Part shown: positions 2,032-42,992 of the stretch, in pieces
Position numbering within the stretch: position 1 is the stretch's first letter
Layout: every line of letters begins with the position of its first letter
Source of the DNA: Escherichia phage dhaeg
DNA: 64,000 nt
Direction: 5' to 3' (one strand)
Sequence record: MN850609.1
Notes under the pieces: model-generated
Seen by the model: the letters and a program-made list of their open reading frames with translations, nothing else
Told to the model about the DNA's origin: nothing
Databases searched by the model: none
Made by a program: the position numbers and the translations under genes

Positions 2032-2571
2032 ATGAAAAAAGTATTAGCCACTTTACTATTGACAGTTAGTATGTCTGCCTATAGCGTAGAGCCTACTTTC
2101 AGTAATGAACAACTCGATAATTTACATTATGCGTATGCTTTCGGTGAACAATACCAAAAGTCGGGAAAGTTCAAAGAAAACCCTAATCAAAAAGGATTAG
2201 GATATATAATGGCCGGATTATTATGGCAGGAATCATCTGCTGGAATTAATCAAGGTTTAAATAAAGATAAGCACCATGCTTATGGCATGTTCCAAAATTA
2301 CTTGCCTACGTTAAGAAGTCGTGTTCAACAGGTAGGTTGGAAGATGTCAGACAAAGAAATAATTCGCATGGTCCAAAAACGACAGAACAGTGCCTCTTGG
2401 GCCTACATTGAGCTGTCTTATTGGATTGATGTTCACAAAGGTGACCTGAGAAAAGCGATTGCTTCTTATAATGCGGGCTGGAATGTCAAAGCAGGCAGTA
2501 AATATGCTTCCGAAGTTCTAGAAAAGGCCAATTACCTAAAATCTAAAAAGATGTTTGAGGCGGTATATTAA
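2032..2571 (+). CDS. secreted lytic transglycosylase (SLT domain) protein
   Basis: N-terminal signal peptide; SLT-like motifs WQESS, GMFQ, SYNAGW. Confidence 0.55.
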   Translation: MKKVLATLLLTVSMSAYSVEPTFSNEQLDNLHYAYAFGEQYQKSGKFKENPNQKGLGYIMAGLLWQESSAGINQGLNKDKHHAYGMFQNYLPTLRSRVQQVGWKMSDKEIIRMVQKRQNSASWAYIELSYWIDVHKGDLRKAIASYNAGWNVKAGSKYASEVLEKANYLKSKKMFEAVY

Positions 2572-2928
2572 ATGATTAAACAGATGACTATAGCGCTTAT
2601 GTTGATTGCTCCGGGAGTATTAGCATCACAGGTTGATGATACAAATAATTCAATTGTCGAGTATGCCACCCGTACAGCAAAAGATTATTGTCATCCGAGT
2701 AATACTGAATGTGTTATTGAATTCAGTTCAAAAATAACAGCTGCTTTTAAAGATGGACAGAACGACGTCGAGCATCGCCGAATGAAAGAGAAAACTCTTT
2801 CTAAAAGATACGAGCAACGTCTAAACGTTACTGAATGTGTTCCGTCTGATAAAAAGTACAAAGAAATGTGCGCGTCTATGGTAGACAGACTCGTTGACTC
2901 TTACAACCGAGGGCTAAACTCTAAATGA
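2572..2928 (+). CDS. secreted hypothetical protein
   Basis: 118 aa, signal-peptide-like N-terminus, cysteines. Confidence 0.45.
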   Translation: MIKQMTIALMLIAPGVLASQVDDTNNSIVEYATRTAKDYCHPSNTECVIEFSSKITAAFKDGQNDVEHRRMKEKTLSKRYEQRLNVTECVPSDKKYKEMCASMVDRLVDSYNRGLNSK

Positions 2929-3404
2929 TTATTGATTATATTAAGGGCGATATCGTCGCCCTGTTTCTTCAAGGTAATATTATTGCACACGGGTGCAACT
3001 GTTTTCATACTATGGGTTCAGGTGTGGCTGGTCAATTAGCAAAGGCCTATCCTAAAATATTAGAAATTGATAAGACCACTACTGAATATGGTTCTCGTGA
3101 TAAATTGGGTGATATGTCTATTGTTTTTAAACATAAGCCTAATGGATTTGCAATGTGCTATAATTTATACACCCAATACGAACCAGGCCCTAATCTTGAT
3201 TACGGTGCTTTAGTAAACTGTATGATAGAATTAAATCTACAAGCAAATGACCTTTTGTTTAAACCAAGAATTTATATTCCTCGCATTGGTTGTGGTATTG
3301 CTGGTGGTGATTGGGACAAGGTTTCTAAATTAATCGACATGTTTACTCCTGATATTGATTTAATAGTGGTGGATTATGAAAGCACATTACCCACATCCGT
3401 TTGA
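2925..3404 (+). CDS. macro domain protein (ADP-ribose binding / ADP-ribosylhydrolase fold)
   Basis: 159 aa; Gly-rich macro motif NCFHTMGSGVAGQLAKAYP; ATGA overlap upstream. Confidence 0.6.
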   Translation: MIIDYIKGDIVALFLQGNIIAHGCNCFHTMGSGVAGQLAKAYPKILEIDKTTTEYGSRDKLGDMSIVFKHKPNGFAMCYNLYTQYEPGPNLDYGALVNCMIELNLQANDLLFKPRIYIPRIGCGIAGGDWDKVSKLIDMFTPDIDLIVVDYESTLPTSV

Positions 3405-3588
3405 CCCTAAAAATAAAGCTGAAATTATTCGGCGCTGGACTGAAACTCGAGTAACCAAATGCCCTATAAAAAGTCAGCATAACACCGATAAATGGTATAT
3501 TGGTGAATATGTTGAATATACTTTTATAGATAAAAATAAACGTAAACAGCATGTAGAAGAATATTGCTTAAAGGTACAATGGTTATGA
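3376..3588 (+). CDS. hypothetical protein
   Basis: 70-aa ORF overlapping macro gene end; GGTGG RBS. Confidence 0.3.
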   Translation: MKAHYPHPFDPKNKAEIIRRWTETRVTKCPIKSQHNTDKWYIGEYVEYTFIDKNKRKQHVEEYCLKVQWL

Positions 3589-5228: not shown

Positions 5229-5598
5229 TTTCGTACTTAGTCGAGGGACTGAAGTAGATTCTTATATTGGCTGGCTGTTGGTTTCTTTAGCCTATTTTAA
5301 GTCAGCCCATTTGGAAACCAAAAGCTATGCAAGACACAAAGCATATGACTTCTATTATACAGAAGTTCAAGGACCACTAGACCAGTTCAGTGAACAGTAT
5401 TTAGGATTTAGTGGCAAAGAATATAAAGCATCACTACCGTCTGCTTCAGAACTGCCTAAAGACCCCATAGATTTTCTTGATGAACTTATTAAAGCGTCTG
5501 ATAAAATCTACAAAAATCTTCCTAAGGCCATCCAATCGACTTTGGACGACATCACTGGTGTCTTTTACCAGACTAAGTATTTGTTAACGTTAGAATAA
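5212..5598 (+). CDS. hypothetical protein
   Basis: 128-aa ORF followed by terminator. Confidence 0.45.
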   Translation: MMKFNDFVLSRGTEVDSYIGWLLVSLAYFKSAHLETKSYARHKAYDFYYTEVQGPLDQFSEQYLGFSGKEYKASLPSASELPKDPIDFLDELIKASDKIYKNLPKAIQSTLDDITGVFYQTKYLLTLE

Positions 5599-5603
5599 TC
5601 AAA

Positions 5604-5629
5604 GGTCTCACTTCGGTGGGACCTTTTTT
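5604..5629 (+). terminator. rho-independent terminator
   Basis: GGTCTCAC-TTCG-GTGGGACC hairpin plus T6. Confidence 0.75.
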
Positions 5630-5638
5630 CGTTTTAGT

Positions 5639-5667
5639 GTTTACATCCTCTAGGAACGTGATACTAT
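5639..5667 (+). promoter_or_regulatory. early promoter (GTTTAC / TACTAT)
   Basis: GTTTAC, 17-bp spacer, TACTAT, AGACCTATCAACT block. Confidence 0.65.
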
Positions 5668-5695
5668 AGACCTATCAACTAATGAGGAGAATAAA

Positions 5696-5926
5696 ATGAA
5701 AACCATCACCAACCTGAAAGTTATCGATATCGCTAAAGCTTCTAAAGCACTTAAAGTTAAAGCTGAAGATTTTGAAAACGCTACCTTTGCTATTATCGAA
5801 CAAAACGGTAAAGTAACTGGTTTAGAAGTTTATGAAGCTACTAAGTTCCAATCACAGCCTAAAATGGTTATTGGTACTAAATCTGTAGCTATCGAAAAAG
5901 CTTTGGCATTATTCGAAAAAATTTAA
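5696..5926 (+). CDS. hypothetical protein
   Basis: 76 aa; GAGGAG RBS. Confidence 0.5.
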   Translation: MKTITNLKVIDIAKASKALKVKAEDFENATFAIIEQNGKVTGLEVYEATKFQSQPKMVIGTKSVAIEKALALFEKI

Positions 5927-5939
5927 TGAGGAAAATATT

Positions 5940-6122
5940 ATGTTAACTACCGAACAGATTGAGAAAATTATCAAACTCGCCCAGCACATTGAAAACGCAT
6001 CCAATGACCTGGCTGTTGAATATTGTGAAGGTTATTCGTATTCCGGAATAGAGCAGTGTAAACGAGATTTGGCTAACTCTAAAGCAGCCTTGGTTGAGTA
6101 TCTTAATGGGTTGAAAGCATAG
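5940..6122 (+). CDS. hypothetical protein
   Basis: 60 aa; GAGGAAAA RBS. Confidence 0.45.
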   Translation: MLTTEQIEKIIKLAQHIENASNDLAVEYCEGYSYSGIEQCKRDLANSKAALVEYLNGLKA

Positions 6123-6379
6123 TGGCCGTTGGATTTGCTAAGGACGGGGCCGAACAGCTCGAAATGGAAGCGGTCGTACAGGCCGCTATAGTACACGCCC
6201 GTAAGCAAGTAGCAGTTGAACGTGAATCGGCTAAATATTGTTTTGATTGTGATGAAGAGATTCCTGAAGCACGACGTCAAGCTATTAAGGGTGTGATATA
6301 CTGTGTAGGTTGTCAGTCAATGCATGATGAAATTTTTAAACGTGAGCCACGTAACTGTTGGCATAGGAGCATGAGATGA
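6122..6379 (+). CDS. TraR/DksA-family C4 zinc-finger protein (likely RNA polymerase secondary-channel binder)
   Basis: CFDCDEEIPEARRQAIKGVIYCVGCQ matches TraR/DksA zinc-finger signature; GTG start overlapping upstream stop. Confidence 0.6.
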   Translation: MAVGFAKDGAEQLEMEAVVQAAIVHARKQVAVERESAKYCFDCDEEIPEARRQAIKGVIYCVGCQSMHDEIFKREPRNCWHRSMR

Positions 6380-6470
6380 TTTACTATCTTGAACCTTGGG
6401 CTTGGCTTACAATGCTTATTGGTCCAGTTTTAATAGGTTTATTCTTTTCACGGTTAGCGAGGAAACTGTA

Positions 6471-6680
6471 ATGTTATACGACCCGAGTGGTAATTCTGAA
6501 GATGGTGTTATTGTTTTGAAACCTGAAACATTAGCAGGTTCAGGTGATGATATGACTGTTGAAGTGGTAGAGTGGAATCTTATTAAAGGCGGAATTGTCC
6601 TGGAACAAGATGACGAGGTCATTTATCTGGATGCAAGCCAAGTCGAAGAGCTTTATAGTATTTTAAAACATAACCGGTGA
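6471..6680 (+). CDS. hypothetical protein
   Basis: internal ATG with GAGGAA RBS in ORF 6396-6680. Confidence 0.4.
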   Translation: MLYDPSGNSEDGVIVLKPETLAGSGDDMTVEVVEWNLIKGGIVLEQDDEVIYLDASQVEELYSILKHNR

Positions 6681-6876: not shown

Positions 6877-7437
6877 ATGATTATTGAAACATCTGGGCTG
6901 TTTGGTGACCTGACTGCTGAAGTAGTTGATAATGCAATTGTGCTTTCACAAGAAGACGATAAAATCGTACTGACTATCCAAGATATCAAGCCGCTTTATG
7001 ATTTAAAGGTTTTGGACAAACACGAATATCTTAATGGCAGATTTAGAGGTGTATTTGATATTAATGATGGTTTATGGGCCCAGATTTATAACCATGACAA
7101 AGGGTTTAATTTGGAAACAGACGGAGAATGTCTGAGCATTAGCGATTCTAGTAATTTCTTTAAATGTATTTTTAAACTGTTCCAGGAAGAATGCAAGCCG
7201 GAAGTTGAATGGAAAGTCCCTGGTCAAGATGCCGTAATTCGTTCTAGTGAAACATTTGAAGGTGATGAAGAAGAAATGGATTATGATACCGAACTAACCG
7301 TGTATCAACACCAGGGCCGTGATTTGCTATCCTTGGTCCAAAGACACGACGGTGAAAATGAAGTTGTATTTACGAAGGACGAGCTAAAAGTTTTAGTATC
7401 TTATCTGAACTCTGTTATCCCAACTATGAACTCTTAA
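6877..7437 (+). CDS. hypothetical acidic protein
   Basis: 186-aa ORF with GAGGAACGGAAA RBS. Confidence 0.5.
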   Translation: MIIETSGLFGDLTAEVVDNAIVLSQEDDKIVLTIQDIKPLYDLKVLDKHEYLNGRFRGVFDINDGLWAQIYNHDKGFNLETDGECLSISDSSNFFKCIFKLFQEECKPEVEWKVPGQDAVIRSSETFEGDEEEMDYDTELTVYQHQGRDLLSLVQRHDGENEVVFTKDELKVLVSYLNSVIPTMNS

Positions 7438-7446
7438 GGAAATATT

Positions 7447-7899
7447 ATGATTATCAATGAAAACTCTTGGCATGTTAAATTACATGACCGCTTTTATGCC
7501 AGTTATTCGCGTCCGCGATCATTATGCGCATACTTCTGGAAAATGGTTTGGGTGTGCTTTATGTGTTCTGTGCTTGCAGGTAGTACTATTTTCGGCTTAA
7601 CTGTTGCAGGTGCCGGTATATTGGAGCAGTTCTTTGTATTGAGTACTCCTGTTGGTTTAAGTTTAGGTTTTATTTTAGGACTGATTATAATAGCCCTTAT
7701 TCTAGCGGTAGCTTTTGGTTTGGTGTATGGTCTAATGAATTTATGGGCCCGGTACGATTTACGTAAAGAAGAAAAAGAATGGGAACGCATTAAAGCTAAA
7801 CGTGAAGGAAAGGAAATTAAAGAAAATGTTTTCATTCAATATATTAAAGCTCGTAAATCTAAGATGTGTCCGGTAATCCATTTTGAGGCTAAGAAATGA
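7447..7899 (+). CDS. integral membrane protein
   Basis: 150 aa, two or three hydrophobic helices, basic C-terminus. Confidence 0.5.
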   Translation: MIINENSWHVKLHDRFYASYSRPRSLCAYFWKMVWVCFMCSVLAGSTIFGLTVAGAGILEQFFVLSTPVGLSLGFILGLIIIALILAVAFGLVYGLMNLWARYDLRKEEKEWERIKAKREGKEIKENVFIQYIKARKSKMCPVIHFEAKK

Positions 7900-8906
7900 G
7901 AACAGTTATGAAAGGCTACTTCGGTAGCCACCTTTATGGAACAAGTACTCCGGAATCTGATGTCGATTTTAAAGAAATCTTTGTTCCACATCCGCGTGAT
8001 ATTCTGTTAGGTACGGCAATGAACCATACCAACCTGAACACGAATAACACTGCTTCCAAAAACACTAAAGATGATGTTGACCATGAGCTTTACAGTCTGA
8101 AATATTTCTTTAAACTAGCTGCTGAAGGCGAAACCGTTGCTCTGGATATGCTCCACACTCCGCCTGAAATGGTGGTTAAATCTGATTTACCTGATGTATG
8201 GAAATTTATCCAAGATAACCGTTCGCGTTTCTATACAACCAACATGAAAGCCTATTTAGGGTACGTCCGTAAGCAAGCTTCTAAATATGGTGTTAAGGGT
8301 TCTCGACTGGCTGCTTTACGTGGTGTACTGGCAATTGTTAACCAGATTCCTGAACAGTGGGTTGATTATCAAGAAGATGGTTCTACTAAGCAACGACGTA
8401 CTAAGGTAGAAGATATTAAGCACCGGCTCCCTGAAAATGAGTTCTGTGAATGGGTATTTCATAACCACGAGAAAACAGGTCCTCAAACGTTCTATACCGT
8501 CCTCGGTCGTAAATACCAAACTACTTTGTCATTAATCGAGCTCAAGCAATCTCTGAATAAACTTGATGCCGAATATGGTGAACGTGCTCGTAAGGCCGAA
8601 GCCAATGAAGGTATTGACTGGAAAGCTCTGAGCCACGCTTATCGTGCTGGATATCAGTTGAAGGAAATCTATCAAACAGGCGATTTGGTTTATCCACTTA
8701 AAAATGCTTCTATTATTAAAGCAATAAAAGCAGGTGATATGCCTTTTAAAGTGGTCCAAGGGCTGCTAGAAAACATTGTTGATGAAGTTGAAGTCCTGGC
8801 TGTACAAGCTCATAAGAACGGTATACCTGAGAAGGTGGACATGAAGTTCTGGGACAAGTTCGTCGAAGAGGTGTATCTTGACAACCACAACTCTTATTAC
8901 CGCTAA
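7896..8906 (+). CDS. nucleotidyltransferase-fold protein (Pol-beta superfamily motif GS...DVD)
   Basis: 336 aa; GSHLYGTSTPESDVDF motif; ATGA overlap upstream. Confidence 0.5.
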   Translation: MRTVMKGYFGSHLYGTSTPESDVDFKEIFVPHPRDILLGTAMNHTNLNTNNTASKNTKDDVDHELYSLKYFFKLAAEGETVALDMLHTPPEMVVKSDLPDVWKFIQDNRSRFYTTNMKAYLGYVRKQASKYGVKGSRLAALRGVLAIVNQIPEQWVDYQEDGSTKQRRTKVEDIKHRLPENEFCEWVFHNHEKTGPQTFYTVLGRKYQTTLSLIELKQSLNKLDAEYGERARKAEANEGIDWKALSHAYRAGYQLKEIYQTGDLVYPLKNASIIKAIKAGDMPFKVVQGLLENIVDEVEVLAVQAHKNGIPEKVDMKFWDKFVEEVYLDNHNSYYR

Positions 8907-9102
8907 AGAAGAAATCAAGGTTTTCCTGTCATATGGAAGACCTCATAAAACCTGTCGTTGGTATCTTGAAGTAGTTTGTAGAGAAACCGGTAGACGAATC
9001 AATTTCAAGTACGTATGCAAGCCTACGTCTAAGCAGATAAGACGGTGTATTAACTGGGCTATCAATAATATCCGCTTCCATAATTATTGGAGCGCAATTT
9101 AG
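8878..9102 (+). CDS. hypothetical basic Cys-containing protein
   Basis: 74-aa ORF overlapping end of upstream gene; stop abuts terminator. Confidence 0.3.
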   Translation: MTTTTLITAKEEIKVFLSYGRPHKTCRWYLEVVCRETGRRINFKYVCKPTSKQIRRCINWAINNIRFHNYWSAI

Positions 9103-9124
9103 GAACCTTCGGGTTCCTTTTTTT
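9102..9124 (+). terminator. rho-independent terminator (GGAACC-TTCG-GGTTCC + T7), copy 1 of repeated cassette
   Basis: perfect hairpin plus T-tract; identical hairpin at about 43401 and 63909. Confidence 0.8.
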
Positions 9125-9143
9125 GGGTTCAGCACAAAAAAGT

Positions 9144-9172
9144 GTTTACAACCTAGTAGAGCATGTTATTAT
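9144..9172 (+). promoter_or_regulatory. early promoter (GTTTAC / TATTAT)
   Basis: AAAAAAGTGTTTAC, 17-bp spacer, TATTAT. Confidence 0.6.
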
Positions 9173-9209
9173 GGACCTATCAAATCTACTGAGTGAAACG
9201 GAGAATATA

Positions 9210-10190
9210 ATGTTAACTATCAAAATCAACAAAGGTATCTATCGAGGTAATGAAATCTCTGGTACGTTCATGAGTTCAGGTAAAACCTGGTTCCCTAATA
9301 AAATTCATGAATCCGAAGCTCACCTCGGTGACGGCAAGGTATTTGTACAGATTGATGGTGTTGAACGTGGTGTGTGGGTGTTCAAATGTGACATCGAAAT
9401 GGAAGGTGCTGAAGCTCCTGCAATGGTCACCGAATCCGCTGAAGAAATGAAACACCGCATCAACAAACGTTTTAAAGTAATGAACATGATGACTAACGGA
9501 ATCATCGATGGTAAAATTCGTTCCCTTATCATCTCTGGTGCCGCAGGTATTGGTAAAACATACTCTTTGGATAAAGCATTACAAAATGCCCATGAAAATG
9601 AAACTATCGAATATAAATCAATCAACGGAAAGATTAGTGGAATCGGTCTTTACGAGCAGCTTTGGAATAACCGCGGCCCTAATAGTGTTCTTCTTATTGA
9701 TGATGTTGATGTATTCTCTGACATGGATATCCTGAACCTTCTGAAAGCCGCATTGGATACTGGTGAAAAACGTAAGGTGTGTTGGAGCACTTCAAGTTCT
9801 TACCTCGACGATAAAAATATCGATAAAGAATTCGAATACGAAGGCACCATCGTGTTCATCACCAACGTTGATATTGACCGTGAATTAGAGCGTGGAACTA
9901 AACTTGCTCCACACCTCCAGGCTTTAGTATCTCGTTCCGTTTATCTCGACTTGGGTGTTCACTCAAACGAAGAGATTATGGTTCGGGTTGAAGACGTTAT
10001 CCTGTCCACTGATATGATGCAAAACCGAGGTCTGACCGATGCCGAGACTTATCAAGCTTTAGCATGGATGAAGGCTAATGTATCTCGTCTTCGTAACGTA
10101 TCATTACGTACAGCTCTTTATCTGGCGGACTTCATTGCCACCGATAAAAATGACTGGAGCGAAATCGCTGAAGTTACACTTCTGAAATAA
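9210..10190 (+). CDS. AAA+/P-loop ATPase
   Basis: Walker A GAAGIGKT, Walker B LLIDDVD; start placed at ATG after promoter (listed ORF start 9087 spans terminator and promoter). Confidence 0.6.
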   Translation: MLTIKINKGIYRGNEISGTFMSSGKTWFPNKIHESEAHLGDGKVFVQIDGVERGVWVFKCDIEMEGAEAPAMVTESAEEMKHRINKRFKVMNMMTNGIIDGKIRSLIISGAAGIGKTYSLDKALQNAHENETIEYKSINGKISGIGLYEQLWNNRGPNSVLLIDDVDVFSDMDILNLLKAALDTGEKRKVCWSTSSSYLDDKNIDKEFEYEGTIVFITNVDIDRELERGTKLAPHLQALVSRSVYLDLGVHSNEEIMVRVEDVILSTDMMQNRGLTDAETYQALAWMKANVSRLRNVSLRTALYLADFIATDKNDWSEIAEVTLLK

Positions 10191-10200
10191 AGGTGAAATT

Positions 10201-10542
10201 ATGTTCGAACAATTTAGTTATGACCTTATAAAAACAGAGTTGAAATACTCTAATGCCATGAAACAGTCTATTGAAGACTATGATAATGAATTTAAACACC
10301 AATTCGCCGAGAAGGTTTACAAAACCGATTGTGAAGAAGGAGACTACAAGAGACTGGCCTTGGCCGCGAAGACCCAAGCCTTAATAAATCTAGACCGTAA
10401 GCAGGTTAAGTTGGCAGGCGACTTCAGAGATGAACTCTGCGCCATCAGGAACGAATACCTTATTCGTATTAAACACCAACGGAAAGAGAACACCCAATCC
10501 GCATGGTTTAGTGGGCAAGCCGGTGAAAAAAGTTTTTATTAG
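10201..10542 (+). CDS. hypothetical protein
   Basis: 113-aa ORF. Confidence 0.45.
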   Translation: MFEQFSYDLIKTELKYSNAMKQSIEDYDNEFKHQFAEKVYKTDCEEGDYKRLALAAKTQALINLDRKQVKLAGDFRDELCAIRNEYLIRIKHQRKENTQSAWFSGQAGEKSFY

Positions 10543-10544
10543 TT

Positions 10545-10573
10545 GTTTACATCTCCAGTAGAAATGATACTAT
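10545..10573 (+). promoter_or_regulatory. early promoter (GTTTAC / TACTAT) with spacer/SD inverted repeat
   Basis: GTTTAC, 17 bp, TACTAT; CTCCAGTAG vs CTAATGGAG. Confidence 0.65.
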
Positions 10574-10599
10574 AGACCTATCAACTAATGGAGGTTATC

Positions 10600-11124
10600 A
10601 TGAACGCTAAAGATATTTTTTCACTGATTAATTTTAACAATGGTAATTTCAAATCTGAAAAACAAAGCAAGTTCTTTAACGACGTTGCTTGTGGTAATGA
10701 GATTACCGTATCTGGAGGAGAGATTTACAAAAGCCGTTGGAACTGGATTGTTATCATCGATTCAGTTGGTATTGTAGAGCTCTATAAAAACACTAACAAA
10801 AAACGTACTCTTCACTGGAGTCGTGAAACCAATCAAGCTTATCAAGCCGAGCGTAATAAACGTTTAATGCCTACTGAATCTGACCTGGCAAACGTTAAAT
10901 CAGATATCGCTTATTTTGATAACTTGATTGCCGAACAACAAGCGGTTATTGATAAGTTTGACGAAATCAAAGCTTGTAAAGAGATTCCTGAATTTATGCG
11001 GGAATCAGTAAACGAACAGTATGCCCTCACTTCAGGTCGTATCGAGCAGTACAAATCACAACGAGCTGAACGCCAAGCTCTGCTTCAGAAATTTGAAGAG
11101 CGTTTAAAGACGGTTCTCGCATAA
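10600..11124 (+). CDS. hypothetical protein with C-terminal coiled-coil tail
   Basis: ATG after GGAGG RBS; heptad-like C-terminus. Confidence 0.5.
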   Translation: MNAKDIFSLINFNNGNFKSEKQSKFFNDVACGNEITVSGGEIYKSRWNWIVIIDSVGIVELYKNTNKKRTLHWSRETNQAYQAERNKRLMPTESDLANVKSDIAYFDNLIAEQQAVIDKFDEIKACKEIPEFMRESVNEQYALTSGRIEQYKSQRAERQALLQKFEERLKTVLA

Positions 11125-30677: not shown

Positions 30678-30707
30678 GTTTACATACCACATGGAACGTG
30701 GTAGTAT
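30678..30707 (+). promoter_or_regulatory. early promoter (GTTTAC / TAGTAT)
   Basis: GTTTAC, 18 bp, TAGTAT, CCTATCAACT block. Confidence 0.55.
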
Positions 30708-30737
30708 CCTTCCTATCAACTACATGAGGAAATTATA

Positions 30738-30974
30738 ATGGAAGCTTTAATCGTTAGTGCTGGTGTTTTAGGATTCGGTTCTCTGGTTATTATGTTCATT
30801 GGTTACTTTTTACCATGGATTCTGGCTCTTCTGCGAGGCACTCGTAGCAATGTCGGAATCTTCTTCCTTAATCTCCTGTTAGGATGGACGATGATTGGTT
30901 GGGTAGTGGCTTTAATCTGGGCTATCGTCGCTGAACGTAAATCAAACGCACAAATCATTATCGTTAAACAATGA
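30738..30974 (+). CDS. imm: superinfection immunity protein Imm (membrane)
   Basis: 78 aa; two TM helices; LLGWT.IGW..ALIWA motif; position after gene 43. Confidence 0.65.
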   Translation: MEALIVSAGVLGFGSLVIMFIGYFLPWILALLRGTRSNVGIFFLNLLLGWTMIGWVVALIWAIVAERKSNAQIIIVKQ

Positions 30975-31108
30975 AGATAATTATTTTATTTCTTATAATG
31001 GTTGCCTTTACCATTTATTGGGCAGTGGCAATTCCTCCAATGATTCCAACATTAATCATGGGATGGATTATTCTTATAGCACAAATTAAGTATAACTGTT
31101 TTAATTGA
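30971..31108 (+). CDS. small hydrophobic membrane peptide (unlisted ORF)
   Basis: 45 codons read by hand; ATGA overlap with imm. Confidence 0.35.
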   Translation: MKIIILFLIMVAFTIYWAVAIPPMIPTLIMGWIILIAQIKYNCFN

Positions 31109-31115
31109 GGATATT

Positions 31116-31616
31116 ATGAAAAAGTTAATTATCGCAATGAGTATGCTCCTATCAGGTTGCGCGGTCCAATACGGCGATGCAGTTTCGGCTGATGAAGTTG
31201 GTAAAGCTCGTATTGCAGCTGAACAGAAACAATTCGACGGCGAAATGAAATTCCGTGCTGGTTCTGGACTTGTGTATACCCGAGCTAATAATCAATGTGG
31301 TAATAACTGTGCAAAATATGCTCAAAGGGAAATCGAATTCCAACGTGAACAAGAGTCTAAGCGTGAAGCGGTACTAGCCAAACACCAGGCAGAAATGAAG
31401 CGCCAAGATGATTTGTACAAAAAGCAGAAACTGTACGCGATGTGTGTAAACCATATCAATCTACAGATTTCCGTCCACGAGGCCCGTTATTACGAAATGC
31501 TCGAAACCGAGAGCTTCGATAAGGCGCGCGATTATAAGAAACAAATCAACAAGCTTAAGACCAAAGTGCCTGCTGCAGTAGAACAGTGCATGGAATACGG
31601 TAAAGATAAGATTTAA
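31116..31616 (+). CDS. lipoprotein
   Basis: 166 aa; signal peptide with lipobox LLSGC. Confidence 0.5.
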   Translation: MKKLIIAMSMLLSGCAVQYGDAVSADEVGKARIAAEQKQFDGEMKFRAGSGLVYTRANNQCGNNCAKYAQREIEFQREQESKREAVLAKHQAEMKRQDDLYKKQKLYAMCVNHINLQISVHEARYYEMLETESFDKARDYKKQINKLKTKVPAAVEQCMEYGKDKI

Positions 31617-31676
31617 GCAATAGAAATTTATTAAAAATAGTGTATAATGTATCTACATTCACTTGAGGAACAGATA

Positions 31677-33350
31677 ATGAAAAAGGTTGTTATTTTAGGC
31701 GCAGGTCTTGGCTCACGGTTGTATCCAATTACTAACGAAATCCCGAAGGTATTGGTTAACTACAAACAACATACTGTATTAAAACATTTGTATGATTTGT
31801 ATAGTAACCAATCAGATGAAATTATTCTGGTTATCCACAGCAAATTTAACGACCTCGTTAAAGGCTATATTAAATCCATTAACATGATTACTGGCGATAA
31901 GCCTAAATTCACTATTCGTAACGTTGATGTTGCTAATGGTTCGGCCCATGCTATCGATTGCATTGCCGAAGATATCATTGGCCATAATGTCTTGTTTAAC
32001 TGGTGTGACATCATTCCTATCGGTCATAAAGTTGAATGGGGTAACGACTACTGTTATACCTATGGAACCGACTGTCGTTTTACATTCGAAGAACCATATT
32101 TACGTGAAATTGGTACTGGTGGTGGCGTAGTTGGTTTGTATCAGGTGGCTAACTGGACAGGTTTCGACCGTTCTAATTATGGTGAAGACCTTGCTGATAA
32201 CCTGGATTCAATGGTCTATTTGACCGAACGTAAACTAGACTTTGTAGTTGATGTCGGTGACAAATTGAAACTGGCTAAGGCCCATGAAGAATCTGAAATC
32301 AATCGTGAATTTAATAAATTAGAATTCACTGAGAATCTGGCCATTAAAGTACCAACTAACGAATTAGGTAAAGAAATTCAATCTAAAGAAATCAATTGGT
32401 ATAATTCTATTGATTCTGAATTTGTTCCTAGTATTGTGGACTTTTCTCCAGGCGAATTCATTAAAATGGAACGTATCTTTGGTCGTACCATGGCAGATGC
32501 CTACCGCTTTATGTCCAAAGAAACTAAAGTCCTCATGGTTTATAAGGTCATTAGTGCATTACGTTCATTTGGTGGAACTATCGATAATCCGTCCGATGAA
32601 CAATGGTATTCTGATGTTAAGAAAGAAGTATTGGACAAGGTCCTTATTCGTAATGCTTCTATTGCTGGATTGATTGAAGGCTTTGCTCCACAAGGCATTA
32701 CCCACGTTAACGATTTCAAAGTAGGCGACCCTGAAAAACTTCTCCGCCATGCACTAGAAATTCTGTCTGAACATAAAGAACCATACCAACTTATTCATGG
32801 CGACCCGCACTACAGTAATATTATGCTGTCGGACGAAGGTGATATTAAAATCATCGACCCACGCGGTTATTTCGGTAATAGTTCTAAAGGCCCTGCGATT
32901 TATGATGAAGCTAAGGTGCTTTATTCTATCGATGGCTATGATAAATTTAACTCAGACCCTCTATGGGGTGGATTAACTCGTAACGGAACTCGTGTATTCG
33001 TTGATATCGAAAAGGTTATGCCTTTAGACGATATCCCTATGTGCACATTTAAGCACAAGCTCTGGATTGCCGTTATTTGGATGGCTCTGGCAGGTTACTT
33101 TAAGAATAACCCTCTGAAAGCTCTGGGTGCTTATTATAATGGTTTGTATCAACTGAGTGTGCTGCTGAAGCGGCATCCTCGTAAGCGTAAGCTTATTACG
33201 GGTGAATTTGTCGATGAAGTTCGTGACCCTATTACGGCTCAAATTATTACTCGTTGTCCTGATAAGTGGGTTTTGCTTGACCAGGAAACTGGTGTAAAAT
33301 ATAAACCTACAGGTTCTACTGAACTCCACAAACAATGGAAGAAAATTTAA
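31677..33350 (+). CDS. bifunctional LicC-like nucleotidyltransferase / APH(LicA)-like kinase fusion
   Basis: N-terminal ILGAGLGSRLYPITNEIPKVLV (sugar- or alcohol-phosphate NTP-transferase G-loop); C-terminal HGDPHYSNIML...IKIIDPRG (kinase catalytic loop); GAGGAA RBS; extended -10 TGTATAAT upstream. Confidence 0.65.
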   Translation: MKKVVILGAGLGSRLYPITNEIPKVLVNYKQHTVLKHLYDLYSNQSDEIILVIHSKFNDLVKGYIKSINMITGDKPKFTIRNVDVANGSAHAIDCIAEDIIGHNVLFNWCDIIPIGHKVEWGNDYCYTYGTDCRFTFEEPYLREIGTGGGVVGLYQVANWTGFDRSNYGEDLADNLDSMVYLTERKLDFVVDVGDKLKLAKAHEESEINREFNKLEFTENLAIKVPTNELGKEIQSKEINWYNSIDSEFVPSIVDFSPGEFIKMERIFGRTMADAYRFMSKETKVLMVYKVISALRSFGGTIDNPSDEQWYSDVKKEVLDKVLIRNASIAGLIEGFAPQGITHVNDFKVGDPEKLLRHALEILSEHKEPYQLIHGDPHYSNIMLSDEGDIKIIDPRGYFGNSSKGPAIYDEAKVLYSIDGYDKFNSDPLWGGLTRNGTRVFVDIEKVMPLDDIPMCTFKHKLWIAVIWMALAGYFKNNPLKALGAYYNGLYQLSVLLKRHPRKRKLITGEFVDEVRDPITAQIITRCPDKWVLLDQETGVKYKPTGSTELHKQWKKI

Positions 33351-33733
33351 TGTCGCATCGAGTAGAAAATAAGCCACATTTATGTTTTGATATCGATAAC
33401 ACAATCACGATTTGGAACCATGACCGTGATTATGAGAACTTTAAACCGGACACCGAAATGGTGTCCATGATTAATAAGCTTTATGATGAAGGGTACGAGA
33501 TTACATTGTTCACTGCCCGTGGCATGACTTCATGTGGCCCAGGTCGAATCTTGGTTGAAGTAGTTCCTGCATTGGTTAAGAATCTTGAAAAAATTGGATT
33601 GAAATATCACAATTTGCTTACACACAAGCCGAGTTATACTTTTATCATCGATGACCGAGCAATCCGTCCTGACCACTTTAAAGAATTGGTTCGTGAAGGA
33701 ACTCTTGATAGTTATAAGGCCTATCATCCATGA
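33335..33733 (+). CDS. small cap-less HAD-superfamily phosphatase
   Basis: motif I CFDIDNTIT, motif II ITLFTAR, motif III/IV K...IIDDR; start may be 33335 or 33350. Confidence 0.6.
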   Translation: MEENLMSHRVENKPHLCFDIDNTITIWNHDRDYENFKPDTEMVSMINKLYDEGYEITLFTARGMTSCGPGRILVEVVPALVKNLEKIGLKYHNLLTHKPSYTFIIDDRAIRPDHFKELVREGTLDSYKAYHP

Positions 33734-34266
33734 ATCCAAAAATCATTGTTATAGACGGCCCGGATAATTCCGGGAAGTCCACTTTAATTAAAAATCTGTT
33801 ATCCAATAAGAAATACCGCCTTATTGATTTTCCTAAAAAGATTAATGGCAAGTGTATTTCATTAGGAACTGATAACGATAAGGCTTTAGTTGAAACTCTG
33901 TATAAGTTTTTAGACCCTAATTTCGTTTATATCCTTGACCGTGGTTATCCAAGTAATATTGTTTACTCAGGATTCCTTCGTGGTGAAATGGACCCTTATG
34001 TAGAACTGGAAGATTGGAAAGGGTTTAAATCTGAATTTAACGTTATCGAGGTTATTTTAACTCGCAACCCATTAGACGAAGACTTCGAAGATGACCTTAT
34101 TAAATTAACCAAAGATGAGTTCAACCTAACTATCCAGCAATACGAAACATGTTTTGAAAACGTGTTTAAAATCTTAAATCATGACGGTCATAATAATTTG
34201 CTTAATGTTGATATGGTAGAATTAAAACGTCTGAACGAATATATTGAAAATAAGGTGAATAAATGA
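33730..34266 (+). CDS. thymidylate-kinase-like P-loop (d)NMP kinase
   Basis: IVIDGPDNSGKST P-loop and LDRGYPSNIVYSG (TMPK DRY-like motif); ATGA overlap. Confidence 0.55.
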   Translation: MNPKIIVIDGPDNSGKSTLIKNLLSNKKYRLIDFPKKINGKCISLGTDNDKALVETLYKFLDPNFVYILDRGYPSNIVYSGFLRGEMDPYVELEDWKGFKSEFNVIEVILTRNPLDEDFEDDLIKLTKDEFNLTIQQYETCFENVFKILNHDGHNNLLNVDMVELKRLNEYIENKVNK

Positions 34267-34961
34267 AACACATTACCGCTGTTAGTTTTGAAAACGCATT
34301 TAAACAAATGAACGAAGAAATCCTGGAAGCTCCACAGTTTGCAGTTGATTCTCGTATCGGACGCTGTTATGAAATTGGTTCTGCTTCAGTAGAAGTACTG
34401 GATGCCAGCACCTATAAATTCACCGACCCACGTATCAATCGTATCAGTTATGAATATGCCGAATCCTTTTGGAAATTTATGATTTCTGGTGGTACTGACG
34501 CTGCCGAAGCATTTAAGGAATACCCTAATGTTGCTAAGTTCATTGATAAGCCGAAAAGTGACGTATTGCCTGCAAACTTCAACACTTTCTATGGACCTCG
34601 AATTGTGGCCCAGCTCCCAGCCCTACTTAAAGAGCTTAAAGAAAAGGCTAACTCGCGAAGAGTTGTGTTCCAGATTCTCCAAGAACAAGACCAAGCCCTC
34701 CTTGATTCTGACGAATCCTTAGAATACCCGTGCACCGATTCAGTAACGTATTATATTCGTGATGGTCGTTTGTATGCACATACCCATATGCGTTCACAAA
34801 ACTGCGCTGTTGTTATGCAGCTGGATTTCTATCTGCAGGGTAAACTGATGGCATTTATTGCCGAACAGTGTGGTGTCGGTTTAGGTACGTATTCCCACAC
34901 CATGGTAAGTGCACACGTGTTTGAACGTGATTTTGACTACGTCCGAGGTTTCCTGAAATGA
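34263..34961 (+). CDS. 42: dCMP hydroxymethylase (thymidylate-synthase fold; gene 42 homolog)
   Basis: 232 aa; TS/dCMP-HMase family motifs (HMRSQN-like); synteny with imm and uvsX. Confidence 0.75.
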   Translation: MKHITAVSFENAFKQMNEEILEAPQFAVDSRIGRCYEIGSASVEVLDASTYKFTDPRINRISYEYAESFWKFMISGGTDAAEAFKEYPNVAKFIDKPKSDVLPANFNTFYGPRIVAQLPALLKELKEKANSRRVVFQILQEQDQALLDSDESLEYPCTDSVTYYIRDGRLYAHTHMRSQNCAVVMQLDFYLQGKLMAFIAEQCGVGLGTYSHTMVSAHVFERDFDYVRGFLK

Positions 34962-35851
34962 GTTTGTTTATCGTTCCTATTTTCAGTATGCGTAGTTACG
35001 AAACAGGTGAATATGCCGTCCTTAAGGACGGTAATTTTCAACTCCATTTAAATCGTGCTCGTCCAGGTGATTATCTGGCTTATCCTAGAAATTCGAGCGA
35101 TATCAAAGAATGCATTGAATTATTCCCAGAACTGAATTTCGTACCACTTTGGTATAAAGAAAATGCTTATGAAACCCGTAAACATTTCTGGTCCGAAAAT
35201 GAGTTTGTAGTCGATTCACTAATCGAATACTATGATTGCTCAGGACTGGTAACCGATATCACCGGTTATGATGGTGCTCATACTGTACAATTCAACTTTA
35301 ATATCACAATGGACCCTGAAGTTCCTCGTTATTATATCGACGAGTTCATTGATATTGATGTGGCTTCAGTTGAACGTTCACTTTATACTACAGTCCTGAA
35401 TCAATGCCAGAAAGACGTCCTGGTGTCACGAGGTGCATCCTCTGATAAGATTTTTGTAGACCAAAAGGTAATTAATCCTGCAGTAATTGAGCGTTACTCT
35501 GATGGTCTAGCGCCTATTAAAATTGATGGTATTTTCCATCCATTCCGTATTTCGGATAAGTGCTATCAATTCGAAAGAGTTGTAGACCAAGCTGCCGCTG
35601 AAGGTGCTCGTCTTTATATCACCGACCCGAATGATTCATTTAAGCGTGAAGACTATCGTCCTGATGTAGAGATTGTTAAATTCAAACCGAGTAAGGTTGA
35701 ATATTATCAGATTCTGAAATCAAGACCACATATCATTTATCATGAGAACCCAGGTTTAGTATTCCATCCTGGTCTGGCTGAATTCATTTATTTCGGTGCC
35801 CATATTCATTCTGAGTACGAAATGCCACGTTATGAGGACGTAGTATGCTAG
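34958..35851 (+). CDS. hypothetical protein at the beta-glucosyltransferase position; putative DNA base glycosyltransferase
   Basis: 297 aa; occupies beta-gt locus between 42 and uvsX; coupled to 42 by ATGA; no clear similarity to T4 beta-gt recalled. Confidence 0.35.
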   Translation: MSLFIVPIFSMRSYETGEYAVLKDGNFQLHLNRARPGDYLAYPRNSSDIKECIELFPELNFVPLWYKENAYETRKHFWSENEFVVDSLIEYYDCSGLVTDITGYDGAHTVQFNFNITMDPEVPRYYIDEFIDIDVASVERSLYTTVLNQCQKDVLVSRGASSDKIFVDQKVINPAVIERYSDGLAPIKIDGIFHPFRISDKCYQFERVVDQAAAEGARLYITDPNDSFKREDYRPDVEIVKFKPSKVEYYQILKSRPHIIYHENPGLVFHPGLAEFIYFGAHIHSEYEMPRYEDVVC

Positions 35852-35976
35852 GTCCTCTATTGCTTTTTATAGGTTTGTTATTATTCTCTTTCGGAGCCCT
35901 TCTAGTATTATGCTGGCTCGAGAAACGAGAAGTTCGGAAGATAGTCGATAAGGCTATCAACCGAGGAATTAAGTAA
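35845..35976 (+). CDS. small membrane peptide (unlisted ORF)
   Basis: 43 codons read by hand; hydrophobic N-terminus. Confidence 0.3.
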   Translation: MLGPLLLFIGLLLFSFGALLVLCWLEKREVRKIVDKAINRGIK

Positions 35977-36001
35977 TGCTATAGCTGTGAAGTGATATAA
36001 T
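35977..36001 (+). promoter_or_regulatory. candidate middle-type promoter for uvsX (TGCTATA box, 12 bp, extended -10 TGATATAAT)
   Basis: MotA-box-like motif plus TGnTATAAT. Confidence 0.4.
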
Positions 36002-36054
36002 TACCCTATCTTAAAAACGTGAGAAAAATATAATGGTGCCTATGGAAAAATATA

Positions 36055-37227
36055 ATGTCCGATTTAAAATCCCGTTTGATTAAAGCTTCTACTTCTAAAA
36101 TGACTGCCGATCTGACCAAATCTAAATTGTTTAATGGTCGTGACGAAGTTCCTACTCGTATTCCTATGCTTAATATTGCATTGGGTGGTGCGTTGAATGC
36201 AGGCTTACAATCAGGTTTGACAATCTTTGCTGCACCGTCTAAACACTTTAAAACGTTGTTTGGATTAACTATGGTTGCGGCATATATGAAGAAATATCCA
36301 GACGCAATTTGCTTGTTCTATGACTCTGAGTTCGGTGCTTCAGAATCTTATTTCCGTTCAATGGGTGTTGACCTGGAACGTGTGGTTCATACGCCAATCC
36401 AGTCAGTCGAACAACTGAAGGTTGACATGACCAACCAATTAGAAGAAATTACTCGTGGCGAAAAGGTTATTATCTTTATCGACTCCATCGGTAATACTGC
36501 TTCTAAGAAAGAAACCGAAGATGCTTTGAACGAGAAAGTTGTAGGTGATATGACTCGTGCTAAGTCTCTGAAATCTCTGTTCCGTATCGTAACACCTTAT
36601 TTGACTATCAAGGATATTCCTTGCGTAGCAATTAACCATACGGCTATGGAAATTGGTGGAATGTATCCTAAAGAGATTATGGGTGGTGGTACTGGTATTC
36701 TGTACTCTGCTTCTACCGTATTCTTTATCTCTAAACGTCAGGTTAAAGATGGTACCGAGCTCACTGGTTATGACTTCACCCTTAAGGCCGAAAAATCTCG
36801 TACTGTTAAAGAGAAATCAACGTTCCCAATTACTGTGAACTTTGAAGGTGGTATCGACCCGTTTAGTGGTCTGCTCGAAATGGCTACTGATATTGGCTTT
36901 GTCGTGAAACCTAAAGCTGGTTGGTATAATCGTGCATTCCTTGACGAAACTACAGGTGAAATGGTTCAAGAAGAAAAATCATGGCGTGCTAAAGCTACCG
37001 ATTGTGTCGAGTTCTGGGGACCGCTGTTTAAACATGCCCCGTTCCGTGAAGCAATCGAGAATAAGTATAAGCTTGGTGCAATTAATTCTATTAAAGAAGT
37101 CGATGATGCCGTGAACGACCTTATTAACTCTCGTGTCTCTAAGAACGTTGCAGTTAAATTGAGTGGTGACGCTCAAAGTGCTGCTGATATCGAAAACGAT
37201 TTAGAAGAGATGGATTTAGATGACTGA
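36055..37227 (+). CDS. uvsX: UvsX recombinase (RecA-like)
   Basis: 390 aa; N-terminus MSDLKSRLIKASTSK as recalled for T4 UvsX; RecA-fold motifs. Confidence 0.9.
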   Translation: MSDLKSRLIKASTSKMTADLTKSKLFNGRDEVPTRIPMLNIALGGALNAGLQSGLTIFAAPSKHFKTLFGLTMVAAYMKKYPDAICLFYDSEFGASESYFRSMGVDLERVVHTPIQSVEQLKVDMTNQLEEITRGEKVIIFIDSIGNTASKKETEDALNEKVVGDMTRAKSLKSLFRIVTPYLTIKDIPCVAINHTAMEIGGMYPKEIMGGGTGILYSASTVFFISKRQVKDGTELTGYDFTLKAEKSRTVKEKSTFPITVNFEGGIDPFSGLLEMATDIGFVVKPKAGWYNRAFLDETTGEMVQEEKSWRAKATDCVEFWGPLFKHAPFREAIENKYKLGAINSIKEVDDAVNDLINSRVSKNVAVKLSGDAQSAADIENDLEEMDLDD

Positions 37228-42470: not shown

Positions 42471-42992
42471 ATGGCTCATTTTAATGAATGTTCTCAACTT
42501 ATTGCTGGTGCTGATAAAGCTGAAGAAGCTTATTTTAATGCTCTGATTCACGAAGATAAAGACCCTCTGCAAGTTATGCTTGATATGCAGAAATCATTAC
42601 AGGTTCGTCTGGCCACTGAAAAATCGGAATTCAACACCAATCCTGATGAACTAGCTACAGCAGGTCAAGTTGTTGATTGGCTTCGCAACCAGAAAGATTA
42701 TATTGATGATGAATTCCGTGAACTGCTGACTTCTCTTGGCGGTATGAGTAATGGCGAAAAAGCTGCCTCTAGTGTGTGGAAGCCTTGGAAAGCCCAACAT
42801 GCTGAATTCCGTAATCGTCGTATTGACGAGTTGTCTCCTGAAGACCAGCTCGAAATCAAATTCGAGATGATTGATATTCTGCACTTTGTTCTTAATATGT
42901 TCCAGGGTCTTGGACTGACCGCTGAAGAAATCTTTAAACTGTATTATCTGAAAAATGCCGAGAACTTTGCTCGTCAAGACCGAGGTTATTAA
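42471..42992 (+). CDS. 56: dCTP pyrophosphatase (dCTPase/dUTPase, gp56, MazG-like)
   Basis: 173 aa; near-identity recalled to T4 gp56 at both termini. Confidence 0.85.
   Translation: MAHFNECSQLIAGADKAEEAYFNALIHEDKDPLQVMLDMQKSLQVRLATEKSEFNTNPDELATAGQVVDWLRNQKDYIDDEFRELLTSLGGMSNGEKAASSVWKPWKAQHAEFRNRRIDELSPEDQLEIKFEMIDILHFVLNMFQGLGLTAEEIFKLYYLKNAENFARQDRGY

Follow-up and report, generated by a model that had tools for sequence, protein, structure and literature searches.

The 64,000-nucleotide stretch of Escherichia phage dhaeg analyzed here (MN850609.1; the window) carries, between imm and uvsX, a cassette of five open reading frames (ORF1 to ORF5; Table 1) which is very probably the JS98-like (Dhakavirus) version of the pathway that replaces DNA cytosine with arabinosyl-5-hydroxycytosine. 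This assignment draws on orthology, signature residues, protein folds and gene context, combined with the published chemistry of the orthologues; pairwise comparison found an orthologue of each of the five ORFs in both characterized arabinosyl-5-hydroxycytosine systems, the RB69 and DLP3 clusters. The pathway itself is already known, having been published in 2025-2026 and extended in print to the Dhakaviruses, which a 2026 NAR paper names among the lineages with conserved 5-hydroxy-dC biosynthesis (PMC13326640). Its interest lies in a thymidylate-synthase homologue shifted from folate to flavin/O2 chemistry and in a phage-encoded route to UDP-arabinofuranose, and DNA modified in this way is protected against many restriction enzymes and CRISPR nucleases.

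An earlier reading of the same DNA (the original prediction) had described a DNA hypermodification cassette of five overlapping ORFs, with arabinose as the likely sugar, a transferase at the beta-gt position and a dCTPase gp56 elsewhere in the window. The window's ORF list returned all five frames on the plus strand at the predicted positions, with overlaps of 16, 4, 4 and 4 nucleotides (nt) at the successive junctions from ORF1 to ORF5, and gp56 was likewise located; the orthologues in RB69 and DLP3 argue for the hypermodification pathway and for arabinose, and together with a GT-B fold they are consistent with the transferase. Upstream of the cassette lie the gene 43 polymerase and then imm (Pfam Imm_superinfect, E = 5e-18), and downstream lies uvsX.

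In the proposed pathway, gp56 would deplete dCTP and supply deoxycytidine monophosphate (dCMP) to ORF4, which with flavin and O2 would convert it to 5-hydroxy-dCMP. Further phosphorylation by a gp1-type dNMP kinase, whose gene lies outside the window, and possibly by ORF3 would then yield 5-hydroxy-dCTP, which the phage polymerase would insert instead of dC. On the sugar side, the kinase domain of ORF1 would phosphorylate D-arabinose-5-phosphate at C1 to yield arabinose-1,5-bisphosphate, ORF2 would strip the 5-phosphate to leave arabinose-1-phosphate, and the nucleotidyltransferase domain of ORF1 would combine this with UTP to form UDP-arabinofuranose, from which ORF5 would transfer arabinose, forming an ether-type glycosidic bond with the 5-hydroxyl.

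ORF4 and the modified base

Pfam places ORF4 in the thymidylate-synthase superfamily (E = 4e-13), which is compatible with the original prediction that it is a dCMP hydroxymethylase and that the cassette decorates 5-hydroxymethylcytosine with arabinose or another group, by analogy with the glucosyl-hydroxymethylcytosine of T4. Many GenBank records also label ORF4 homologues as dCMP hydroxymethylase, and arabinosyl-hydroxymethylcytosine was what was first reported in RB69 (PMC6024577), a finding that the original prediction took as established. However, pairwise alignment showed ORF4 to be 79.7% identical to RB69 gp48 and 71.1% identical to DLP3 gp80, and only 24.5% identical, over 159 amino acids, to T4 gp42. 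Searches of the PDB gave matches to 9iqu, 9iqc and 9ir2 at E = 2e-125 and to T4 gp42 (1b49) at E = 1.5e-4; the three former chains differ very little from RB69 gp48 and presumably represent the HY126 enzyme. RB69 gp48 and DLP3 gp80 are experimentally validated 5-hydroxy-dCMP synthases, with which flavin co-purifies and which incorporate oxygen derived from 18O2 (PMC13326640).

When ORF4 was aligned to verified E. coli ThyA, it showed, in ThyA numbering, Cys146, Glu143, Asn169 and Asp177 (i.e., the changes L143E, D169N and N177D), with residue 169 being Asp in both ThyA and T4 gp42. In the published signature of the 5-hydroxy-dCMP synthases Asn169 is diagnostic, accompanied by Asp177, an acidic residue 143 and the catalytic Cys146 (PMC13326640). 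ORF4 thus has neither the Asp169 nor the close gp42 similarity that mark a T4-type gp42. Two later papers call the hydroxymethylcytosine assignment in RB69 an error (PMC13326640, PMC13390438), which corrects it to arabinosyl-5-hydroxycytosine; the DNA of RB69 and DLP3 contains, in full replacement of dC, 5-hydroxycytosine bearing one to three arabinoses, with the sugar attached to C5 directly via oxygen (PMC13326640). Taken together, these results argue that ORF4 is a predicted 5-hydroxy-dCMP synthase, using flavin and O2 at C5 of dCMP, and not a hydroxymethylase, its chemistry being extrapolated from the orthologues RB69 gp48 and DLP3 gp80. The base would accordingly be read as 5-hydroxycytosine, and a hydroxymethylcytosine pathway is largely refuted and very improbable.

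The original prediction had proposed comparing the locus with those of T4 and RB69, and this comparison placed all three in the same slot, with orthologues in RB69, a distant gp42 in T4 and no sequence similarity between ORF5 and T4 beta-gt. The T4 system (gene 42, alpha-gt and beta-gt) follows the same logic of a dCTPase, a thymidylate-synthase-superfamily enzyme acting on dCMP, a kinase, a polymerase and a glycosyltransferase, with GT-B folds in both. Whereas T4 employs folate-dependent hydroxymethylation and Asp169, flavin/O2 hydroxylation and Asn169 are read for the cassette, and whereas T4 draws on host UDP-glucose and can do without sugar-activation genes, the cassette carries its own.

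Sugar activation and the identity of the pentose

Two Pfam domains were identified in ORF1, NTP_transferase at residues 3-100 (E = 3e-8) and APH at residues 346-417 (E = 9e-6), and its best PDB match was LicC (1jyk), in agreement with the LicC-like/APH fusion originally described. ORF1 matches phrog_4098 over its full length and is 44% identical to DLP3 gp82 (full length) and 41-44% identical to RB69 gp53 plus gp52, and its motifs GAGLGSRL, IPKVLVNYKQH, IHGDPHYSN and IDPRGYFG are kept in all eight of the eight orthologues. Thomas et al. (2018) had noticed that the JS98-like phage IME08 encodes a homologue spanning the whole of the bifunctional enzyme. According to the account of He et al. (2026) given in PMC13326640, HY126 AfhE acts twice, first making the 1,5-bisphosphate from arabinose-5-phosphate and subsequently uridylylating arabinose-1-phosphate, and AfhF, a Mg-dependent HAD phosphatase, takes off the 5-phosphate between these two steps. 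By extrapolation from AfhE, the N-terminal domain of ORF1 (about residues 1-205) is a predicted sugar-1-phosphate nucleotidyl(uridylyl)transferase, and the C-terminal APH-fold kinase would act on D-arabinose-5-phosphate to give arabinose-1,5-bisphosphate. The expectation that the fusion of kinase and nucleotidyltransferase leads to an NDP-sugar is thus supported by AfhE-type orthology and intact motifs.

ORF2 directly adjoins ORF1, so that the AfhE-type bifunctional gene and the small AfhF-type HAD gene stand side by side. The HAD motif I of ORF2 reads DIDNT, as originally noted, and the protein is 62% identical to RB69 gp51 and 64% identical to DLP3 gp81. It matched PDB 9iqw (E = 2.8e-54), which belongs to the same deposition series as 9iqu, 9iqc and 9ir2, as well as 1xpj (E = 9e-12) and phrog_1238 (E = 8e-42); its score against NCBIfam TIGR01689, "capsule biosynthesis phosphatase," was 55 bits, below the 162-bit cut-off. 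We infer that ORF2 is an AfhF-type phosphatase that would remove the 5-phosphate of arabinose-1,5-bisphosphate to give arabinose-1-phosphate. Of the role proposed originally, a HAD enzyme working on a sugar phosphate linked to arabinose-5-phosphate stands, while the release of free arabinose ahead of the kinase does not: in HY126, as relayed in the source cited above, the kinase acts first, giving the 1,5-bisphosphate and then arabinose-1-phosphate.

Accessory genes were sought in a composite of the window and Escherichia phage dhabil (MN850621, Dhakavirus), which is 100% identical to the window over the cassette region (30700-36100), and in the complete dhabil genome, with negative outcomes both times. 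No tblastn match at E <= 1 to an arabinose-5-phosphate isomerase, carried as gp55 by RB69 and as gp83 by DLP3, was obtained, whether in the window or in the whole of dhabil. The window and the complete dhabil genome likewise held no homologue of the RB69 U32-like gp50, gp49 or second transferase gp3 or of T4 beta-gt, nor did the dhabil genome hold one of the DLP3 GT-B transferases gp76 and gp77, which build the third arabinose on DNA; there was no alpha-gt between dhabil genes 47 and 55, and the rIIA.1-gene 39 site contained just two small ORFs. Because the isomerase is also absent from Klebsiella phage Marfa, Providencia phage PSTCR6 and the cluster of Shewanella phage Thanatos, it is accessory rather than universal, and the extra GT4-like transferases define poly-arabinosyl subtypes only. 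Hosts make arabinose-5-phosphate for Kdo synthesis through KdsD/GutQ. The lack of both a phage isomerase and a second transferase points to arabinose-5-phosphate from host KdsD/GutQ and to a single arabinose per modified cytosine; Dhakavirus DNA would on this basis be mono-arabinosylated and fed by the host. The same prediction, mono-arabinosyl-5-hydroxycytosine with a dependence on host arabinose-5-phosphate, applies to JS98-like phages, which are components of phage-therapy cocktails.

Across nine loci, the bifunctional enzymes fell into an isomerase-associated clade A, 52-73% identical within itself, and an isomerase-less clade B (window/dhabil, Marfa and PSTCR6), 71-81% identical within itself and 44-50% identical to clade A in both domains, while neither the thymidylate-synthase homologue nor the HAD protein showed an A/B split. 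This divergence might mean that the base is 5-hydroxycytosine but that the clade-B enzyme takes another pentose phosphate (ribose-5-phosphate or one derived from xylulose), so that the sugar is not arabinose. PSTCR6, with its clade-B enzyme, would be in keeping with such a change, as SdyM_006, to which it is related in its backbone, encodes both the other enzyme type and an isomerase, and so would the counts among 50,697 phage records, in which 80 records with ORF1 homologues have at least 60% identity and 287 fall below, with 276 isomerase matches; moreover, the sugar has been rigorously identified in isomerase-encoding phages only. On the other side, the catalytic motifs and 160 of 527 alignment columns are invariant across both clades, and the two proteins that have to work on the same sugar, ORF2 and ORF5, share 62-72% and 64-69% identity, respectively, with their counterparts in isomerase-encoding Enterobacterales phages. 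Loss of the isomerase needs no new substrate, since hosts supply arabinose-5-phosphate, and Thanatos combines a clade-A-like enzyme with a cluster that has no isomerase. We therefore retain arabinose as the predicted sugar and regard a different pentose as decidedly unlikely.

In its thymidylate-synthase homologue, HAD protein and kinase, PSTCR6 groups with the isomerase-bearing SdyM_006, whereas its bifunctional enzyme groups with those of dhabil and Marfa, a pattern which points to module exchange. A strict rule that loci without an isomerase have a clade-B enzyme was true in eight of the nine loci and failed for Thanatos, and because of this exception we claim no isomerase-clade rule. A disguised isomerase among the unannotated ORFs upstream of the Thanatos and PSTCR6 clusters was also considered and rejected, as Pfam gave only an Imm domain and a second paralogue resembling thymidylate kinase (TMPK) there.

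The kinase, the transferase and the timing of glycosylation

ORF3 has a P-loop, a DR motif and, by fold search, a thymidylate-kinase fold, which bears out the original description of a TMPK-like P-loop protein and favors, as proposed there, a nucleotide kinase over a sugar enzyme. It is 38% identical to RB69 gp45 and 40% identical to DLP3 gp78. Scores against curated thymidylate kinase families stayed below their cut-offs (Pfam PF02223, 15.7 bits, cut-off 27; NCBIfam DTMP_kinase TIGR00041, 18.5 bits, cut-off 83), a profile of nine orthologues reached TMPKs at E = 1e-3 to 0.1 only, and phmmer and the same profile run against the PDB gave P-loop matches and one artefactual RecA-repeat match; these sequence-only searches being uninformative, the fold search was needed. 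The substrate of ORF3 is probably 5-hydroxy-dCMP or a derivative of it. The TMPK-fold kinase follows the HAD gene in Dhakavirus, Marfa, PSTCR6 and SdyM_006 and follows the GT1 gene in RB69, DLP3, CHI14, fHe-Yen9-01 and Thanatos, and it is the fastest-evolving protein of the cluster, with 36-50% identity between groups vs. 65-87% for the thymidylate-synthase homologue. In PSTCR6, two TMPK-like paralogues lie next to each other (9021-9581 and 9666-10265), and the DNA polymerase gene is annotated as two pieces (2068-3585 and 5575-6474) with a reverse-strand ORF between them.

ORF5, encoded directly 3' of the thymidylate-synthase homologue, is 66-70% identical to RB69 gp47 plus gp46 and 49.5% identical to DLP3 gp79. 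It adopts a two-Rossmann-domain GT-B fold like that of NDP-sugar-dependent transferases, and its structural neighbors include the DNA-acting T4 alpha-GT. Pfam and NCBIfam searches with ORF5 gave no match, and a Pfam domain was found in none of its 117 homologue clusters. As the orthologue of the enzyme proposed for this step, ORF5 is the putative first (base-proximal, alpha) arabinosyltransferase.

Several points weigh against the arabinosyl-5-hydroxycytosine assignment. A literature search for analyses of the chemistry of Dhakavirus virion DNA found none. ORF1 shares only 44-46% identity with the enzymes of the characterized phages and forms a separate clade, and the sugar specificity is therefore extrapolated. 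The gp1-type kinase of RB69 converts 5-hydroxy-dCMP to the diphosphate (PMC13326640), beside which ORF3 seems redundant and its role putative. The DLP3 glycosyltransferases, when tried singly, were inactive on 5-hydroxycytosine DNA (PMC13326640), and TH1_063, the Thanatos orthologue of ORF5, has a reported UDP-xylose pyrophosphorylase activity in vitro.

Part of this could be accounted for if the first sugar were added before replication: ORF5 would arabinosylate 5-hydroxy-dCMP, ORF3 would phosphorylate the resulting arabinosyl nucleotide, which is too bulky for gp1, and the polymerase would incorporate the glycosylated dNTP. The kinase, the first transferase and the 5-hydroxy-dCMP synthase are adjacent or nearly so in every sampled cluster, the same trio occurs in the galactose-using Rhizobium phage RL38J1 (PMC13326640, Table 1 therein), and the authors of that study cannot say whether the first arabinosylation takes place on the nucleotide or on DNA. 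Were it true, glycosylation at the nucleotide level would explain why the trio travels together, why isolated transferases are inactive and why a second nucleotide kinase, otherwise redundant, is retained. However, DLP3 gp76 and gp77 do act on DNA (PMC13326640), and the structural proximity of ORF5 to T4 alpha-GT argues in the same direction. To our knowledge, all characterized phage DNA glycosylations are post-replicative (T4 alpha-/beta-GT), which also counts against a first sugar at the nucleotide level. We consider this order of events unlikely and keep to the one given above, in which ORF5 would act after 5-hydroxy-dCTP has been inserted.

Related clusters, distribution and flanking features

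The clusters of RB69, DLP3, Marfa, CHI14 and Thanatos, like the Dhakavirus cassette, lie between gene 43 and uvsX. The Mosigvirus system (RB69 gp45-gp55/HY126 AfhA-F), which makes mono- and di-arabinosyl-5-hydroxycytosine, shares the slot, the hydroxylase signature and the dCTPase, with the thymidylate-synthase homologue the closest of the orthologues (80%) and the kinase the most distant (38%). Its kinase gene follows GT1 instead of the HAD gene, the bifunctional enzymes are of different clades, and the predicted product is mono-arabinosylated here vs. di-arabinosylated in RB69. DLP3 gp76-gp83 (Acinetobacter, Lazarusvirus), with up to tri-arabinosyl-5-hydroxycytosine, contains orthologues of ORF1 to ORF5 at 44%, 64%, 40%, 71% and 49.5% identity; like the window it has no U32-like gene, and its extras are the isomerase and the two GT-B transferases named above. 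The closest architecture is that of Marfa gp038-gp043 (Marfavirus), which has the same order of bifunctional enzyme, HAD protein, kinase, thymidylate-synthase homologue and GT1, no isomerase and a clade-B enzyme, with identities to ORF1 to ORF5 of 80%, 83%, 84%, 87% and 69%; unlike the window, it has a U32-family gene between the kinase and the thymidylate-synthase homologue. No report on the DNA chemistry of Marfa was found in the literature.

Thanatos (TH1_060-TH1_065) carries a single pentose on cytosine, has one GT1-type transferase (52% identical to ORF5) and, like the window, no isomerase in the cluster; its thymidylate-synthase homologue (71% identical to ORF4) has been shown to make 5-hydroxy-dC, and its DNA has been called mono-arabinosylated (PMC13326640). 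Inactivation of its bifunctional gene almost abolished propagation. It is unlike the window in having the kinase 3' of GT1, a U32 gene and a clade-A-like bifunctional enzyme. For its modified nucleoside, a positive-mode m/z of 360.10 was reported, and the modification was described as a cytosine-linked deoxypentose; the calculated [M+H]+ of pentosyl-5-hydroxy-dC is about 376 (243 + 132 + 1), which has no obvious fit with 360.10.

Among the genes of the related clusters, conservation is highest for the U32-family ("peptidase") gene, which shows 79-89% identity from Klebsiella to Shewanella phages (RB69 8493-9662, minus strand; Marfa 9787-10947; Thanatos 6927-8063), and is missing in Dhakavirus and DLP3. 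Its sole NCBIfam match is a marginal one, to the O2-independent hydroxylase UbiU, and is a lead only. In bacteria, the U32 proteins RlhA and TrhP form 5-hydroxy-C/U in RNA independently of O2. Given this chemistry and the marginal UbiU match, the phage gene could provide an anaerobic route to 5-hydroxycytosine that is wanting in the Dhakaviruses.

Among the phage records surveyed, homologues of ORF1, ORF4 and ORF5 were found in 367, 363 and 352, respectively, and at least 80% of the 5.4-kb locus is present in 51 records, so the five-gene order is no chance arrangement. The isomerase (276 records) and the gp3-type transferase (212) are rarer, which makes the minimal layout a common variant. Besides its identity to dhabil, the cassette region is 97-99% identical to JS98, JS10, CLB_P2 and others. 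Outside the cassette, the window is 94-99% identical to dhabil, and positions 40000-64000 are 99.3% identical to CLB_P2 (OL770107), a pattern which suggests either a mosaic/recombinant or a close Dhakavirus relative. Public labels for the five genes include hypothetical protein, "capsule biosynthesis protein" or "phosphoheptose isomerase," "thymidylate kinase," and "thymidylate synthase" or "dCMP hydroxymethylase"; the misleading labels on Dhakavirus cassette genes can now be corrected.

Table 1. Features of the cassette and associated genes in the window.
Feature	Position	Strand	Description
Cassette leader	31617-31676	+	60-nt intergenic; sigma-70-like promoter match; GAGG ribosome-binding site 8 nt 5' of ATG 31677
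ORF1	31677-33350	+	557 amino acids; predicted bifunctional AfhE-type nucleotidyltransferase/kinase
ORF2	33335-33733	+	132 amino acids; small cap-less HAD phosphatase, predicted AfhF-type
ORF3	33730-34266	+	178 amino acids; P-loop kinase, thymidylate-kinase fold
ORF4	34263-34961	+	232 amino acids; predicted 5-hydroxy-dCMP synthase, thymidylate-synthase superfamily
ORF5	34958-35851	+	297 amino acids; GT-B-fold glycosyltransferase (putative)
43-amino-acid ORF	35845-35976	+	one hydrophobic helix; 7-nt overlap with the ORF5 stop
gp56 dCTPase/dUTPase	42471-42989	+	100% identical over 173 amino acids to dhabil_89 "dCTP pyrophosphatase"; outside the cassette

Apart from the leader, the genes of this run follow one another without a gap. 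Its promoter match consists of TAGAAA, a 16-nt spacer and TATAAT at 31643-31648 and is a consensus match only, in a region where 20 sigma-70-like sites were found vs. 18.4 expected from shuffles. An alternative ORF1 start at ATG 31647, which would give 567 amino acids, falls within the TATAAT box, and the start at 31677 is backed by its ribosome-binding site and by the fact that ORF1 aligns with DLP3 gp82 and RB69 gp53 from residue 1 onward. The GC content of the cassette, 33-44%, is unremarkable for the genome.

The 43-amino-acid ORF, which begins MLGPLLLFIGLLLFSFGALLVLCW, is translationally coupled to ORF5 and carries no annotation in the dhabil record. PHROG and Pfam searches gave no match, and tblastn against the Marfa, PSTCR6, SdyM_006, CHI14, fHe-Yen9-01, RB69 and DLP3 loci gave no counterpart; its membership of the pathway is uncertain. 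Two further plus-strand genes lie between imm and the cassette. The one nearer the leader (31116-31616) encodes a 166-amino-acid protein with a lipoprotein-type signal (LLSGC lipobox) that matches phrog_1754 (unknown function), and the other (30971-31108) is a hydrophobic ORF of 45 amino acids that is 55% identical to RB69 gp54, the annotation of which reads only "42-imm intercistronic region."

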